Assembly (NCBI RefSeq): GCF_050920415.1
Contig: NZ_CP169309.1
Direction: 5' to 3' (one strand)
From: Escherichia coli
Lineage (GTDB): Bacteria > Pseudomonadota > Gammaproteobacteria > Enterobacterales > Enterobacteriaceae
Length of the DNA: 64,000 bases
Made by a program: the position numbers and the translations under genes. Numbering within the stretch: position 1 is the first letter of the stretch; every line of letters starts with the position of its first letter. Shown in pieces: positions 49,325-62,067 of the stretch. Below the pieces are notes generated by a model. It ran no database searches. It worked only from the letters and a program-made list of their open reading frames with translations, and had not been told where the DNA came from.

Positions 49325-50437
49325 TTACCTGTCAGTCACCCGATATTCCACGCTATGTGCTTCATCAGGTTGAGGAACTTCCAGCCTTGAGGCCATCCGC
49401 ATCACGACCGCTTCAGGAACGGCATACTCGCGCCTGGCATTTTGCTGCTTCCATTGCGCCCACGGTACTTCCAGATAAACGATTTTTACTCGTGCACCGT
49501 AAGCCGTAAACAGACTGATGAGCTGGCTACGCAACTGGCGGGTAATGTTCGTTGCATTCCAGATGAACGGCTTCTTCTGGCGTAAAAAAACGCGCGCTTC
49601 TTCTTTTGCCTGTTGCACAATACGCCCGGTGGCGGTTTTGTCGTCCGGACTGGCATTGATTCGCCGCCGCATATCATCAAGGCTGATAACGTTCACTCTC
49701 TGGCACTGTTCACTGATAAAGCGATCTTTGCCCATACCCGGTAAACCACACAGCAAAATAACCTCAAAAGATTCAGCCTCCCAGGGAACAAAATCAGGAG
49801 AACTTTGTTCATGGGTCAGGTAATGCCAGCGTGCGGAATCCGAAGCGAATGAACGCACTTTTCCCCAGCATTGTTGCTCCTGGCAAAATAGCTCGAACAG
49901 ATCGATGCGTTCCAGCATTGATTGCTGATCATGACAATGGCGACCAAGCAGATCGGCACGAGCAAGCAAAGCGAGCAGACGCGTGTCGATACGCATTGCA
50001 GCCGTGAGCAGCAAACGCTCCGGTTCCGGACGTTCCAGTAACCATAGCGGTAACCCATGCAGACGCACCAGTGCAACAATTTGCTCGCGTAGCACGAACG
50101 GCGTCGGGATATCGCGCCATAAAATTTGTCGGGCCGTCAATTCACCCCGACGAGCATGACCAGGAGACTGAATACGTCCGTTTTCCTGCACGGTAGTACT
50201 GCGCTTTTCAACGTCATGCAATAACGCCGCCGCCCATAAAATTTCCTGCTGCTGAGCGGGGAGTTGCTGAAACTCAGCCATCGCAACGAGTGCGTTCAGC
50301 ACCATTTCAGTATGCACACCAACGTCGCCTTCACCATGATGCTCCGGGTCTTGCGGCGTGTTATGCATATCCTCAACCCAGCTAAAACGCTGGCGTAGCG
50401 TCGACCAGCGTTTGTCGTCGGTAAGTTGCCAAATCAT
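49325..50437 (-). CDS. HD-domain phosphohydrolase fused to P-loop polynucleotide-kinase-like domain; putative RNA end-healing enzyme, accessory gene
   Basis: 370-aa ORF; HD motif (H..., LLHDVEK around residues 33-80); Walker A GLPGMGKD (res 231-238) and Walker-B-like VISLDD; ATGA start/stop overlap with the upstream ligase gene. Confidence 0.7.
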
Positions 50438-51141
50438 GACTGTTCTCCATAAGCGAACTCATGGGCCATCCGCGCCCGTCGCCAGTGGCGTTTCCAGTGC
50501 TCGGTGGTTTTGACATGATTTTTGCGTACATACTTGAAGACGTTATGCGAAAAGTCAGCGACGGAAAACGCATCACTATTCCGGCTGACAATGCCTTCCA
50601 GCGTACAGGGTTGCCCGGTTTGCGTATCCCAGGGATCGAACGCGCCGCGCGCATTGGTCAGCGCCAGAAAATCACGTTGCCAGCTTTTTTCATCATTCCC
50701 CGGCTGCGGGCCGGAGATTTCGGGAACGCAGGGGAAATCAAACAGAGCGGCGTAAAACTGCACCTCTTCCCAGCTCAGCCACATATCCTGGCAGCGAACG
50801 GCAAACAGATAAAAATCCTGCTCCAGGGCGCGATATTCAATCGAATGAACGGCATAAAGATTTTCACCAAACAACTCCAGATCGCCGAGATCGTTTTTCA
50901 GCAGTTGCCAGCGTTGGCGAATTTTATAGGTCCATGCCGATTGTGTAGGCGCGGCATGGGAACGGGCAAACACGCCGTAGCGGTTAAGGCAGTTATTTTC
51001 ACCGTCGAGTTTTTCTGTGTGCACCAATTGCGTGATGGCCTGTAAATCCTGCCAGTAATCGGTGTTAATACGGTCATCGCTGGTGGTGCCAGGGGAGAAA
51101 GGATAATGCCAGGTTCTCCCGTATTTACGTTGGGTATTCAT
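50434..51141 (-). CDS. ATP-dependent RNA-ligase-family protein (covalent nucleotidyltransferase), accessory gene
   Basis: 235-aa ORF; motif I KLDGEN (Lys44), motif III-like FGENLYAV, motif IV EGIVSR, motif V FKYVRK. Confidence 0.7.
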
Positions 51142-54250: not shown

Positions 54251-54781
54251 TTAGCTCATCGCTTCGAGAACCACACCGTCTTGTTCCATCTGGTCGAGAC
54301 GGGAGAGCAATTTGCGGGTGATTTGCTCGAGTTGATCTTTTTCTGTTGTGCTGAGCGCGGACCAGAGTTGATGCAGGCAGTTATGCTGCGGTGGTAAAAC
54401 CTCGCGCAAAAACTCGTGACCTTTTTCCGTTAATTGCAGATGCAGGCAGCGGCGATCGTTATCGCTTTCACGACGTTCGATCCAACCGCGTTTTTCCAGT
54501 TCATCGGCAATACGCGTCGCGTTGGTACGGGATGATCCAAGAGCACAACTCAATTCAGAAGGCTGAATACTGTGGTTTTCCTGAGACTCCAGCGTAATCA
54601 ACGCCATAAACAACGTCTCGTTAATCCCCTGAGCCTTCAGCATTTTATTGCGGTTCTCCAGCAGCTTGCTTTGCATGTGCATGCAAAGACGAGTCAGAAG
54701 GATCTCCTGATAAGGAAAATCTTCGTGGCGGCTGGCGCGAAATTTTAGCATTTGTTCAATGGGCGTAAACGAACTATCCAT
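54251..54781 (-). CDS. mprA: MarR-family transcriptional repressor of emrAB
   Basis: 176-aa ORF with winged-helix MarR core. Confidence 0.95.
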
Positions 54782-54871
54782 TTGGGTATGACCTCATTAA
54801 TTTCAGCCGATATAGTAACGACAGTGACAAATAAAGTAAATGTATTGTTTTAGAAAAATGATTCTTGTGGG

Positions 54872-55207
54872 TTATATAATCGCCATCACTTTCCAGGCGA
54901 GCCCATAGGCCAGCGCACTAAGCAGTGTTGGGATGATAATGCTGCGTGTTTTATAGAAACTGGCACCCAGTACCGCGAAGCCGACCAGAGTGGGCACGAA
55001 ACGGCGTGTATCGTGCATCACTTCTGGTGCGGTAGAGACAACCAGCAGAGCGCATATCGAGGCGATGCCAATGGTGTCGAGCAAAATACCTACCGCGCCA
55101 CGTTTGGTTGGGCGGGCATTACCCACACGCAGGCGCAGCGGCAAATAGCGGAAGCAATAATTCGCCGCGCCAACCAGTAACCCAAGCAGCAGAACCTCAT
55201 AGCTCAT
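54872..55207 (-). CDS. ygaH: Branched-chain amino acid (L-valine) exporter small subunit (AzlD-like)
   Basis: 111-aa membrane ORF overlapping ygaZ end. Confidence 0.9.
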
Positions 55208-55934
55208 CGGGCGCTCCTTGCCAGAATGCCTGGATTAACGCAGTGAGGCAGCCACAGACAATGCCTGCCAGAATGGCGACGGGAATAGAAAATAGCGTTA
55301 CGCCTGCAAGGGCACCAACTAACGCTGCGGTAACGCAAAGAGATTGTTTGCGCTGGAAAGAGGCGAGCAGGAAACTCATAAAGAGTGCCGGAAGCATAAA
55401 ACCTAATGCTGCTTCAACGGCGGGATATCCTTGCAGCAAGCCGCTGCCGGAGAATGCCCCTATTACCGTACCAAATACCCACGATGACCATGAACTGAAG
55501 GCAATGCCGATCATCCAGTTCTCGCTCCAGCGGCGATTATTGCGTACCAGTTTTGCGGTTGCGGCGGCAAAAACCTCATCCGTCAGGCCAAACGCCCACA
55601 GGGCAGTTTTCGATTTTTGCAGACGCTGAATAATACGGCTACGCAGTGACGGGCCATACAAAACATGGCGAACATCCATTGCCATGACGGTCAGTGCAGC
55701 AACCCACAAACTACTCCCGGCTGCCAGCATCGCGGTAATGACGAACTGGCTCGCGCCTGCATAAATGATGCAGGAGAAAAAAACGCTTTCGAGAGGAGAG
55801 AATCCCAGACGGGTCGCATTCAGACCGAACGCAAAGGCCACCGGAATATAACTAATAACAATCGGTAAACTGTCTTTGCATCCTTCCATGAAGGTCGCCG
55901 AACCAGGAGCAGGCTGTGGAGTAGGGCTTTCCAT
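55197..55934 (-). CDS. ygaZ: Branched-chain amino acid (L-valine) exporter large subunit (AzlC-like)
   Basis: 245-aa membrane ORF. Confidence 0.9.
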
Positions 55935-56057
55935 AGAGTGTACGCTTAACGATTGTTAATATTATAAATAGACTGAATGAATATCTTAACCTTATCAGAC
56001 TGATGGGCTTCTTAACACCCTTATAAGTGTAAAGCCACGAAAACGGTTGCTGATTGC

Positions 56058-57242
56058 TTAATTTGCGGCTTCCTGACGATGAAAACCTCGCCACCAGACC
56101 AGTAAGTTAACCAGGGCAATCGTCGCGCCAGCCAGACAAACGCCAGCCCAACCGCCATGTTGCCAGGCTGAGGCTGAAATTAGCGAACCGGCGGCACCGC
56201 CAATGAAGTAGCTGGTCATGTAACCTGCGGTCAGGCGATTACGCGCATCAGGGTGTATTCGATAAATTACCGTCTGGTTAGTGATATGCACGCCCTGCAC
56301 GGTGAGATCCAGCACCAGGATGCCGATAATCAGCGCCAGTACGGAAGTGTGACCAAACCAGATCGCCAGCCATGAAAGTAACAGCAGCAGCAGACCGAAA
56401 GTTGTGGTGTGGTGCGATTTGCCCTTATCGGCAAATCCGCCCGCCGGACGAGCGCCCAACGCTCCGGCTGCTCCCGCAAGTCCAAACAGACCAATGACGC
56501 CATCGCTGTAATTAAAAGGCGGAGCGGCGAGCAAAAAGGCCATCGAGGTCCAGAGAATGCTGAAGTTGGCAAAGGTCAGGCAGCCCAGCAACGCGCGGGT
56601 GCGCAGAATTTTATCGCTGATAAACATGCTGAAAACGGAACCAAGCAACTGTGGGTAGTTGAGGTGGGTTTCTGATTTCATTTGTGGCAGACCACGCCAT
56701 AATGCCAGCGCCATCAGTGCCATTAACACCGAGGCAACCCAAAAGACGGTGCGCCAGCCGCCGAGGTTTGCCAGCAACCCGGCAACGGTTCGTGCCAGCA
56801 AGATCCCCAACAGCAGCCCGCTCATAATGGTGCCGACCACTTTGCCGCGTTTGTCCGGTGAAGCCAGCGTCGCTGCCAGCGGAACCAGAATTTGTGCCAC
56901 GACCGAGAATAAACCGGTTAATGCCGTACCGAGGATCATCATCGCCAGCGACTGACTGCTGGCGGTAATCAACATACCGCCCGCTGCCAGTAAGGTCATC
57001 GAGACAATCAGGCGGCGGCGTTCAAACATATCACCGAGGGGAACAAGAAACAGCAGACCTGCGGCATACCCCAACTGCGCGGCGGTAACAATAAAGCCCG
57101 CCGAACTGGCGGAAAGGGAAAAGTTACGCGCGATGGTGTCGAGCAATGGCTGGGCGTAATAGTTACTGGCTACCGCCAGACCGGTGGCGATAGACATCAG
57201 CACGATCAGCGCCGGGCTAAGCTCATGATTAGGTTTAGTCAT
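56058..57242 (-). CDS. ygaY: MFS transporter, intact (K-12 ortholog is a pseudogene)
   Basis: Uninterrupted 394-aa 12-TMS-like ORF. Confidence 0.85.
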   Translation of the reverse strand: MTKPNHELSPALIVLMSIATGLAVASNYYAQPLLDTIARNFSLSASSAGFIVTAAQLGYAAGLLFLVPLGDMFERRRLIVSMTLLAAGGMLITASSQSLAMMILGTALTGLFSVVAQILVPLAATLASPDKRGKVVGTIMSGLLLGILLARTVAGLLANLGGWRTVFWVASVLMALMALALWRGLPQMKSETHLNYPQLLGSVFSMFISDKILRTRALLGCLTFANFSILWTSMAFLLAAPPFNYSDGVIGLFGLAGAAGALGARPAGGFADKGKSHHTTTFGLLLLLLSWLAIWFGHTSVLALIIGILVLDLTVQGVHITNQTVIYRIHPDARNRLTAGYMTSYFIGGAAGSLISASAWQHGGWAGVCLAGATIALVNLLVWWRGFHRQEAAN

Positions 57243-57343
57243 TATTTTTGTTCATCAGGTGATGATTAAGCTGGAAATCAATAATAGCGGATGTTGATGA
57301 ATATGGGATGAAAGATAGATTGTTGAAATGTGCGGTGTGGTTT

Positions 57344-57424
57344 GTAGACATGATAAGACGCGCCAGCGTCGCATCAGGCATTGTGTACAGAGCGGCGGAT
57401 GAGGCAAAAACGCCTTATCCGCCC
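57344..57424. repeat. REP-type palindromic elements (pair) between ygaY and proX
   Basis: GTAGACATGATAAGACGCGCCAGCGTCGCATCAGGCA and GCGGATGAGGCAAAAACGCCTTATCCGCCC. Confidence 0.7.
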
Positions 57425-57433
57425 GAGTAAAAA

Positions 57434-58426
57434 TTACTTCTGCGCTGCCAGCGCCTCATTCACCCAGCCATCGAACTGCTGCTGGTGGGCTTTGATCCAG
57501 CCATCAACGTGGCCCTGAATATCGCCTTCTGAGGCTTTGCCGTCATGCATAATGGCGTTCTGGGCGTTAATATCTGCCACTGGTAACTGCATAATGGCAA
57601 ACAGTTTCGCTGCTGCCGGGTTTTTCTCGGCCCAGGCTTTGTTGGCAACGATATGCATGGTACTGACCGGGAAGCCGTAATTCGCGCCATTCGGCAGTTT
57701 GGTATCGGCATTTTTATCGCCCGGCAGTGCGGAGAACGGCACCTGCAACCAGACCACATCTTTCCCCGGTTTCAGTTCGTTACTCACCCAGTACGGCGTC
57801 CAGGTGTAGTAAAACACCGGCTTACCCTCTTTGTAACGACTGATGGTGTCAGCCATCATCGCTGCGTAGTTCCCCTGATTATGCGTCACGGTATTGGTCA
57901 GTCCATACGCGGCAAGCTGGTGGTTGATCGCACCTTCGCAGCCCCAGCCTGGGTTACAGCCGGTTAAATCCGCTTTACCGTCGCCGTTGGTATCGAACAG
58001 TTTGGCGATCTTCGGATCTTTAAGTTGCGCGATGTTGGTAATTTTATACTGGTCGGCGGTTTTCTTATCGATCAGGTAACCCTGTGCCGCGCCGTTAACA
58101 AATACTCCTTCACGATAAAATTTCTTATCGCCACCGGCAGCTTCGTACATGTTGTCATGCAGTGGCGTCCAGTTCACTGCGGTGAAGGTTGCATCGCCGG
58201 AAGCAAGCGAGGTGTAGCCAACGTTGTAATCCACTTCGCTGGGTTTATTGACGGTATAACCTAATTTCTCCAGCGCGCGGCTGACCAGCAGCGTCTGGAA
58301 AGTTTCTTCGGTGATGGTGCTCTGAACCGGATTAACAGTAATGCCTTTGCCCGGCAGGTCGGCAGCAAAAGTTTGTGTAGAGATAAGCGTGGCAAACGCT
58401 GTCGCAAAAAGTACGCTATGTCGCAT
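57434..58426 (-). CDS. proX: Glycine betaine/proline ABC transporter periplasmic binding protein
   Basis: 330 aa from [26 protein letters not shown] (signal peptide). Confidence 0.95.
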
Positions 58427-58483
58427 TGTTATTCCTTTTTTTGGCAGGGTGATAATGCCCGGCGTCACCGGGCAAGTGCAGAG

Positions 58484-59548
58484 TTACTTAATGAATGGGC
58501 GGGTCAGCAGACCGACAGGTCCAGTGGTGTACCAGCGACGGTTGCCGCGACTGCGTGAGTCGCGCCCAACGGCCTGCGTCAGGCGGTCGAGGATAATGGC
58601 GAGGATCACAATCCCGACGCCGCCAACGGTGGCAAGCCCCATATCCAGACGACCGATACCGCGAAGTACCATCTGACCCAGCCCGCCGACGGCAATCATC
58701 GAGGCGATGACCACCATAGAAAGGGCCAGCATCAGCGTCTGGTTAACGCCCGCCATTATGGTCGGCATCGCCAGCGGTAACTGAACTTTGAACAGCATTT
58801 GACGCGGGCTGGCACCGAATGAGCGCGAGGCTTCAATTAAATCCGCCGGAACCTGATTAATACCAAGAATCGTCAGACGGATAATCGGCGGCAGAGCAAA
58901 GATTATAGTCACCACTACGCCCGGCACGTTGCCGATACCAAACAGCATGACGATTGGCACCAGATAAACAAACGCTGGCGTGGTCTGCATGGCATCAAGC
59001 AGTGGACGAATAATTTTCGCCGCTCGCGGACTTCTCGCCAGCCAGATCCCCAACGGCAAACCTATGACGATACAGAACAGCAGGGCGGTTAACACCAGCG
59101 CCAGGGTAACCATGGCCTGCGACCAGGCACCGATTGCGCCGATGGCAATCAGCGAAACCAGAGTCGCCACGCCCATTCCGACCCCGGAAATCTGCCAGGC
59201 GATGAGAGCGAAAACGATAATCGCCACCGGCGCGGGCATACCCAGCAGCAATTGCTGGAAACCGTTGAGGATGTAATCAACCGGAACGCGCACGCCCTGA
59301 AAGACGGGACGAAAATGGGTAACGACCCAGTCGATCCCTTCAGTGACCCAACTGTCGAGCGGGATTAGCGTTTTATGGAACGGATCGAGAATATTAAAAT
59401 GCTCGACGTTTGGCGCAGGCGTACTGGTCAGCCAGTCAGCGCCACCGCCGTCAGTCGGTGCAGTCGCCGGTGTACCCCAGGCGTCTGCAGATTGTGCAGC
59501 ACTGTCCGCCGCTGGCGTGGTATCCCACGGATTATTTTGATCAGCCAT
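58484..59548 (-). CDS. proW: Glycine betaine/proline ABC transporter permease
   Basis: 354-aa membrane ORF; 8-bp overlap with proV end. Confidence 0.95.
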
Positions 59549-60743
59549 TATTTACCCCCTCACGATCTAAAGCGCGCAGCAGCATTCCTTTCGAAATGAT
59601 GCCGACATACTGTTGGTCCTCGTCGACCACGGGCACCGCACAGGGCGCTTGTCCGACATGAGAGAGCAACTCGCTAAGAGGCGTTTGCGCATCGACTGCT
59701 AATGGCGCATCAATCAGCGCCGCATCAAGACCTTGCTGCTGCGTTAACGCGGTTTTAAGCGAATCGATAGACACAGCGCCGACAAACTTATTACCGCGTT
59801 CGATAACGTAGCCATATTCGCGGTCTTCATCCTGCAATAATTTCAATGCCGAACGTGGGCCGAAGCCAGGGGTTTTACGAATTAAGCCATTCGGTGTCCG
59901 ACGGGCAATATCTTTCGCACTGAATACCTGACTAATATCAACGCCACGGAAGAAGGTACGGACATAATCATTCGCCGGATTATTGAGAATTTCATCCGGT
60001 GTGCCAACCTGCACCACTTCACCATTTTGCATAATGGCAATTCGGTCGCCAATACGCATAGCTTCGTCGAGATCGTGGGAAATAAAGACAATGGTACGTT
60101 GATGTTTCGCCTGTAATTTTACCAGCTCATCCTGCATCTCAGTGCGAATTAATGGATCAAGCGCCGAGAAGGCTTCGTCCATTAATAATATATCCGGATT
60201 AATTGCTAATGCGCGGGCTAATCCGACGCGTTGACGCATCCCACCAGAGAGTTCGTCCGGGTAGCTATGGGCATAATTTTCCAGCCCGACCTGACGCAGT
60301 GCATCAAGGGCTTTTTCCCGGCGTTCTTCGGCATTAATTCCGGCCAATTCCATACCGAATGCAGTATTGTCCAGCACGGTCATATGCGGCATTAAGGCAA
60401 AGGACTGGAAGACCATCGCAATCTTTTTTCTGCGCACCTCACGGAGTTCGGCGTCGGATATTTTGGCAATATCCACACCATCAATCAGCACTTGCCCGCG
60501 GGTGGGTTCAATCAGGCGATTGAGAAGGCGTACCATTGTGGATTTACCCGAACCGGATAATCCCATGATGACAAATATCTCGCCTTCTTCAATGGCCAGA
60601 CTGGCGTCTTTTACGCCAAGCGATAGCCCGGTTTTTTCCAGAATTTGTTCTTTTGAAAGTCCTTGTTCGATATATTTGAACGCTCGCTGAGGATGCTCGC
60701 CAAATATTTTATAGAGATTTTTAATTTCTAATTTAATTGCCAT
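59541..60743 (-). CDS. proV: Glycine betaine/proline ABC transporter ATP-binding protein with tandem CBS domains
   Basis: 400-aa ORF; Walker [13 protein letters not shown] signature LSGGMRQR. Confidence 0.96.
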
Positions 60744-60811
60744 GCAATAGAAAGATTCCTGTTATTTGTTTATGTCGATACATTACCCAATGGAAATAGT
60801 CACTTTTTTCT

Positions 60812-60839
60812 ACCCTAACATACTGAGAATCTGAGGCAA
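60812..60839 (-). promoter_or_regulatory. proU P2 promoter (-35 TTGCCT, 16-bp spacer, -10 TAGGGT)
   Basis: Minus-strand TTGCCTcagattctcagtatgtTAGGGT about 70 bp upstream of the proV ATG; AT-rich region further upstream. Confidence 0.75.
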
Positions 60840-61098
60840 CCCCTGATGGCAAATGTGGCATGAATATTGATGCGAGCAAATCGCCGGAATTTCCCATGAT
60901 ATAAGGGCTGAGAGCAAATCGAGAAAGTTGATATTTTTTTGTCATAGATAGCGAAAAAACGCCTGAATATTGTGGTTTCAGGCGAATAATGCAACAGAGT
61001 ATCAGTGTAGATCACCACAAAATATTTGCGTGATAAAAAGCTATTTGGCGGGAATTATTTCCCCTGCTGAAGTTGGTGAAATTTTGAAAAATAACCGG

Positions 61099-62067
<969 letters not shown>

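Follow-up and report, generated by a model that had tools for sequence, protein, structure and literature searches.

The question raised by this locus is whether ygaY, a pseudogene in Escherichia coli K-12, is an intact and functional gene in other E. coli strains, and how the K-12 copy was disrupted. The locus lies in a 64,000-nucleotide stretch of E. coli DNA (contig NZ_CP169309.1, assembly GCF_050920415.1), hereafter referred to as the window. In an earlier note on this DNA, a continuous 394-aa ORF encoding an MFS transporter was placed where K-12 carries a disrupted ygaY, and was taken as a mark of a non-K-12 strain and as the ancestral full-length form of the gene. According to the present analysis, the ORF is very probably an intact, functional ortholog of YgaY, namely, a YnfM-family MFS secondary transporter encoded between proVWX and ygaZH, which was lost in K-12 by a 7-bp deletion. 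The gene and its neighbours are arranged in the window as follows:

58484-59548, minus strand: proW, upstream of ygaY
57434-58468, minus strand: proX, upstream of ygaY
57243-57433, minus strand: proX-ygaY intergenic region with a REP-type element inside (Rfam match and promoter scan)
56058-57242, minus strand: intact ygaY coding sequence, 394 aa plus stop (ORF list, Pfam MFS_1, and a RefSeq CDS at matching coordinates)
55935-56057, minus strand: ygaY-ygaZ intergenic region, 123 bp, 100% identical to K-12 (alignment)
55197-55934, minus strand: ygaZ, downstream of ygaY
54872-55207, minus strand: ygaH, downstream of ygaY
54251-54781, minus strand: mprA, downstream of ygaY

The ORF listing of the window agreed with the earlier note on the extent of the ORF and added its strand, which the note had left unstated. 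The ORF starts with ATG and is 1185 bp long. RefSeq labels the equivalent 1185-bp CDS of the near-identical genome NZ_CP169399.1 as "MFS transporter", and the encoded protein is 100% identical to widespread E. coli proteins. The gene is flanked by proX/proW/proV on one side and by ygaZ/ygaH/mprA/emrAB on the other, in an order colinear with K-12; the window from 62558 to 52551 formed a colinear alignment (97.2%) with 10 kb of K-12 MG1655 (nrdF-proVWX-ygaY-ygaZH-mprA-emrA). Both chromosomal position and similarity, with a single match in each of 5,418 genomes, identify the ORF as the ortholog of K-12 ygaY.

In the proX-ygaY spacer, Rfam detected naRNA4 (RF02564, nucleoid-associated ncRNA 4) at positions 57347-57424 of the minus strand, with a score of 63.5 bits (gathering score 59.5 bits; E 5e-10). 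This REP-type element is located where the proU literature puts a terminator or insulation zone. The ygaY-ygaZ spacer contains a promoter-like site (TTAAGA-17-TATAAT, positions 55989-55961) oriented towards ygaZ.

In K-12 MG1655, ygaY (b2681; UniProt P76628; TCDB 2.A.1.36.3) occupies the syntenic slot with the same flanking genes and is annotated in RefSeq as a pseudogene of 1178 bp (2808316-2809493 of NC_000913.3), whereas the 1185-bp copy in the window, with ~97% nucleotide identity, is open through all 394 codons. Global alignment of the two sequences revealed 35 substitutions and a single 7-bp gap after approximately nucleotide 254. The K-12 disruption named in the earlier note was thereby confirmed, and the alignment to the K-12 region that it had proposed located the lesion: the 7 bp are missing from K-12 at codons 85-88, which shifts the reading frame and results in a stop after 88 codons. 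The rest of the K-12 protein is readable in another frame, past the premature stop. Before and after the lesion, K-12 encodes exactly the amino acids of the window protein, and the 35 substitutions are thus synonymous throughout. The lesion corresponds to the following site:

56973-56990, minus strand: site of the K-12 lesion, codons 85-90 (L-A-A-G-G-M; CTGGCAGCGGGCGGTATG on the coding strand; pairwise alignments)

The bases absent in K-12 align to approximately 56982-56988, the placement being ambiguous by a few bases. According to the hydropathy scan, the lesion falls in the predicted TM3 (residues 78-96).

The distribution of the lesion was assessed with probes spanning the K-12 junction. 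An 81-bp probe matched 354 genomes at an identity of at least 99%, among 5,405 genomes with a match, and the best 60 matches all belonged to K-12 derivatives. A 40-bp probe, which extends some 20 bp to either side of the junction and does not seed on the common intact alleles, was fully matched in 353 of the 5,426 complete E. coli genomes; 19 full-length matches, sampled evenly, were all K-12 derivatives or K-12-like. The sampled carriers include MG1655, DH5alpha, C600, J53, MC4100-type strains, transconjugants, and O16:H48 isolates from mouse-gut evolution, with genomes of 4.46-4.79 Mb. The 7-bp deletion is restricted to strains of the K-12 lineage and can be used as a simple marker of this lineage. 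Because the lesion is absent from about 93% of the complete genomes of E. coli, an intact ygaY is not a distinctive feature of the window strain.

The non-K-12 affiliation of this strain, as claimed in the earlier note, is supported by a divergence of ~3% in proVWX and ygaY, by an insert between luxS and emrB, and by near-identity to strain MFDS1022581 (Korea, animal-source food). Positions 40000-64000 of the window differ from the MFDS1022581 sequence (NZ_CP169399.1) at one of 24,001 bases, the next-best genome showing 98.9%. This 24-kb surrounding region is covered to at least 80% in one piece by only 344 of the 5,426 genomes. The sole difference is located within ygaY, at position 56450:

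56448-56450, minus strand: ygaY codon 265 (Arg)

The substitution is non-synonymous (Arg265 in the window, Ser265 in MFDS1022581), and Arg265 is invariant in the Escherichia/Citrobacter alignment. Within positions 54251-62058, identity to K-12 amounts to 95.3-97.4% for nrdF, proVWX, and ygaY, 99.1-100% for the ygaY-ygaZ spacer, ygaZ, ygaH, and mprA, and 97.5% for emrA. The divergence shifts abruptly at the 3' end of ygaY, and the whole pattern suggests that homologous recombination has made this region a mosaic. The insert mentioned above was found by comparison with K-12, in which emrB is directly followed by luxS:

approximately 49325-51141, minus strand: two-gene insert between luxS and emrB

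The product of one of its genes, 370 aa long, matches an HD domain weakly and also has an AAA_33 kinase-like domain; that of the other is a 235-aa RNA_ligase (PF09414) protein. The insert looks like a polynucleotide-kinase/ligase RNA-repair cassette; PADLOC gave no defence-system match for it.

As for the protein itself, its assignment to MFS transporters in the earlier note held in the comparison with the Pfam MFS_1 model (PF07690), which gave 142.2 bits (cut-off 33.4 bits) and an E value of 2.6e-41, far beyond what is expected of a chance ORF. The Pfam MFS_4 model aligns to residues 31-381. A Kyte-Doolittle scan showed 10 clear peaks, a broad segment at 278-322 that accommodates two helices, and a weaker one around 338-360. 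About 12 hydrophobic segments are predicted in two halves, six before and six after a charged loop (residues 186-216).

Motif A of MFS transporters, G-x-x-x-D-R/K-x-G-R-R/K, is located in the loop between TM2 and TM3. The YgaY sequence V67-P-L-G-D71-M-F-E-R75-R76 aligns with G-P-L-S-D-A-I-G-R-K of the E. coli protein YnfM, and retains the aspartate and the two arginines of the motif, the two glycine positions being substituted. Motif C of antiporters, G-x-x-x-G-P-x-x-G-G, is located in TM5. The corresponding sequence of YgaY, G146-I-L-L-A-R151-T-V-A-G-L-L, contains no G-P and does not represent the motif C of DHA1-type drug:H+ antiporters, which weakens the assignment of YgaY to efflux proteins. 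The NCBIfam Bcr/CflA, EmrD, and Cmx models scored far under their cut-offs.

In TCDB, E. coli YgaY (P76628) is listed as 2.A.1.36.3 in the "acriflavin-sensitivity (YnfM) family" with the function "Unknown" (PMC5417439). Membership in this family (TCDB 2.A.1.36) is indicated by the listing and by full-length homology to K-12 YnfM (b1596; TCDB 2.A.1.36.1), which showed 26% identity over about 390 residues in BLASTP (E 2e-20). The helix register of the two proteins matches, and the aspartate and arginines of motif A, as well as the TM5 arginine (R151 in YgaY), are conserved in both. However, YnfM is only a distant paralog; its gene is paired with that of the LysR-type regulator ynfL, whereas ygaY has no adjacent regulator, and Asp312 of YgaY corresponds to Ser in YnfM.

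In E. coli BL21, YnfM has been reported to export glutarate in a CCCP-sensitive, proton-dependent manner (PMC12622518), and its orthologs of Salmonella and Pseudomonas were proposed to be copper importers (PMC13101709), so that reports on the YnfM family differ in both the direction of transport and the class of substrate. By family analogy, YgaY would be a proton-coupled carrier operating by MFS alternating access, and it may export a small organic metabolite, perhaps an anion, in the way reported for glutarate and its paralog YnfM. Such an exporter is the most likely assignment by this analogy, the chances of export and import being roughly balanced. Other searches gave no indication of the substrate. 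None of the NCBIfam models reached its curated cut-off, the best being an aromatic-acid symporter subfamily (78 against 418 bits), and a PDB sequence search found only remote MFS proteins (GlcP, 3e-08; SotB sugar efflux transporter, 5e-04).

It was also considered that YgaY serves its neighbours, either in osmoprotectant traffic with ProVWX or in branched-chain amino-acid export with YgaZH, and is not an independent YnfM-like exporter. The order proVWX-ygaY-ygaZH is the same from E. coli through to Citrobacter, and the K-12 ygaY transcript increases after hyperosmotic shock, the ygaY DNA being bridged by H-NS to the proU downstream regulatory element (bioRxiv 10.1101/2023.07.10.548347). Yet this context of ygaY was found in close relatives only, such as Citrobacter. 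Four homologs with 46-57% identity are located in unrelated and variable neighbourhoods (flagellar genes, an AraC-type regulator with an FMN-binding protein, housekeeping genes) that share no recurring partner gene and contain no ProU or AzlCD genes. Moreover, ygaY is reported to be transcriptionally insulated from proVWX in wild type (bioRxiv 10.1101/2023.07.10.548347), and the REP element lies between proX and ygaY. A role tied to the neighbours is consequently considered quite improbable, and the independent YnfM-family carrier is preferred.

Apart from several unrelated materials-science papers, a full-text search of the literature for "ygaY" returned only the TCDB listing and uses of the K-12 locus. 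The latter include a pseudogene control (bioRxiv 10.1101/072470), a neutral integration site (in several titles), and the H-NS bridge anchor mentioned above, where the "crypticity" of K-12 ygaY and its in-frame stops were remarked (bioRxiv 10.1101/2023.07.10.548347).

Whether the intact form is ancestral was assessed by comparison with other species. The YgaY homologs of E. fergusonii, E. marmotae, E. albertii, and Citrobacter consist of 393-394 aa and show 93-98% identity. Residues 82-91, including the LLAAGGML sequence of the lesion site with G88, are invariant across the Escherichia/Citrobacter alignment. The gene order in Citrobacter (nrdEF-proVWX-ygaY-ygaZH-mprA-emrAB) is that of the window. 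In general, Escherichia and Citrobacter orthologs annotated as "MFS transporter" (e.g., WP_332832689.1 and WP_000165680.1) are 93-100% identical, 393-394 aa long, and syntenic, with no material difference from the window protein. Since the outgroup species have full-length proteins with an invariant lesion site, the intact form is ancestral, and the K-12 state is a recent loss specific to that lineage. The statement of the earlier note that the window gives the ancestral full-length form is thus valid for the protein; at the DNA level, the window allele is not the direct progenitor of the K-12 allele, which is of the type found in strain NCTC9087 (see below). Separately, a 5.4-kb metagenome contig in ENA encodes a 596-aa YgaY-like protein (73% identity) that scores 1092 bits against 834 bits for the self-match, which points either to an internal duplication or to an artefact of assembly.

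Comparison of seven intact E. coli alleles showed that pairs from different lineages differ at 29-44 synonymous bases and at 0-4 amino acids, with a dN/dS of roughly 0.01-0.03; such a ratio of changes is a mark of strong purifying selection. Taken with the conservation of the protein, it indicates that intact ygaY is a functional gene in wild E. coli. An alternative reading is that the gene is open but silent or decaying in E. coli generally, K-12 carrying only the first visible lesion. Consistent with this, the promoter scan predicted no consensus sigma-70 promoter for ygaY in the proX-ygaY spacer, promoter and terminator scans around the gene gave nothing above shuffled expectation, and the literature search found no published function of YgaY. 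In addition, the gene was disrupted independently in two other strains. In CM2010-0578/1 (NZ_CP087564.1), ygaY lacks one base at nucleotide 144, is annotated as "frameshifted", and is found on the background of the G88C repeat allele described below; in PCP06021 (NZ_CM129877.1), a large deletion leaves 13% of the gene, adjoining ygaH. These are sporadic inactivations independent of K-12. However, a decaying gene would hardly show the above excess of synonymous changes between phylogroups, nor would its protein keep a constant length and 93-98% identity as far as Citrobacter, E. albertii, and E. fergusonii, and the gene is present at a coverage of at least 80% in 5,413 of the 5,426 genomes, a pattern unlike decay. 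General silence or decay is therefore very improbable, and ygaY is further treated as a functional gene.

The origin of the 7-bp deletion was traced through intact alleles. The first 29 bases of the 40-bp junction probe, which require the string CTGGCGGCATG, matched exactly in 789 non-K-12 genomes, two of which (NCTC9087 and E. coli C) were retrieved. The ygaY gene of NCTC9087 differs from that of K-12 solely by the additional 7 bp (0 mismatches) and is the nearest intact allele to K-12; that of E. coli C has one mismatch besides the 7 bp. In both strains, the site reads CTG GCG GCA TGC GGC ATG (L-A-A-C-G-M), with Cys88, and forms a perfect 7-bp tandem repeat, GCGGCAT-GCGGCAT, of which K-12 has one unit. 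The B-strain allele reads CTG GCG GCA GGC GGC ATG, with Gly88 and an imperfect repeat. The window, EC958 (B2), Xuzhou21 (O157), and one O111 strain share CTG GCA GCG GGC GGT ATG; the window allele has no 7-bp repeat and keeps the invariant Gly88.

These alleles can be arranged in a three-step path. Synonymous changes would have converted the widespread allele (GCA GCG GGC GGT) to the B-strain type (GCG GCA GGC GGC); a G-to-T substitution (G88C) would then have created the perfect repeat GCGGCAT-GCGGCAT, as in NCTC9087 and E. coli C; finally, the K-12 lineage would have dropped one repeat unit. This path seems the most economical route to the K-12 lesion, and replication slippage the most likely cause of the unit loss. 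A 61-mer representing the presumed intermediate allele in a K-12 sequence context had no perfect match in an exact search, which is explained by downstream synonymous differences; the intermediate codon pattern itself is present in the B-strain lineage. The NCTC9087-type allele can also be read as a K-12-like allele with a frame-restoring tandem duplication of GCGGCAT, but an insertion in non-K-12 strains, or an artefact of K-12 sequencing, is scarcely credible, since the frame is full-length, with Gly88, in outgroups and in every other phylogroup, one G-to-T change suffices to turn the B-strain allele (GCGGCAG GCGGCAT) into the repeat allele without any indel, and a junction common to 353 independently assembled K-12-derived genomes excludes sequencing error.

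An intact ygaY is the usual state of E. coli, and both the K-12 pseudogene and the "MFS transporter" of other strains are already present in standard annotation; the finding is therefore correct but ordinary, and matters little in itself. What is added here is the precise lesion, its likely origin by slippage from the 7-bp repeat of the G88C allele, its restriction to one lineage, and a quantitative estimate of purifying selection. As a natural ygaY null, K-12 may have kept a strongly conserved transporter invisible to nearly all K-12-based functional genomics. It is possible, though unlikely, that this null hides a physiologically relevant conserved exporter or importer, for example, of a dicarboxylate-like metabolite or one linked to the osmotic or amino-acid export roles of the neighbouring genes, in which case K-12 would be atypical for that trait. 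Still more speculative is the idea that the perfect 7-bp repeat of the G88C allele, found in 789 genomes, may serve as a slippage-prone on/off switch. Since wild E. coli carries ygaY as a genuine gene under constraint, results obtained with ygaY as a neutral locus in K-12 are not transferable to other strains. The K-12 lesion, as the loss of one 7-bp repeat unit, would offer a clean repair target for identifying the substrate of the transporter.
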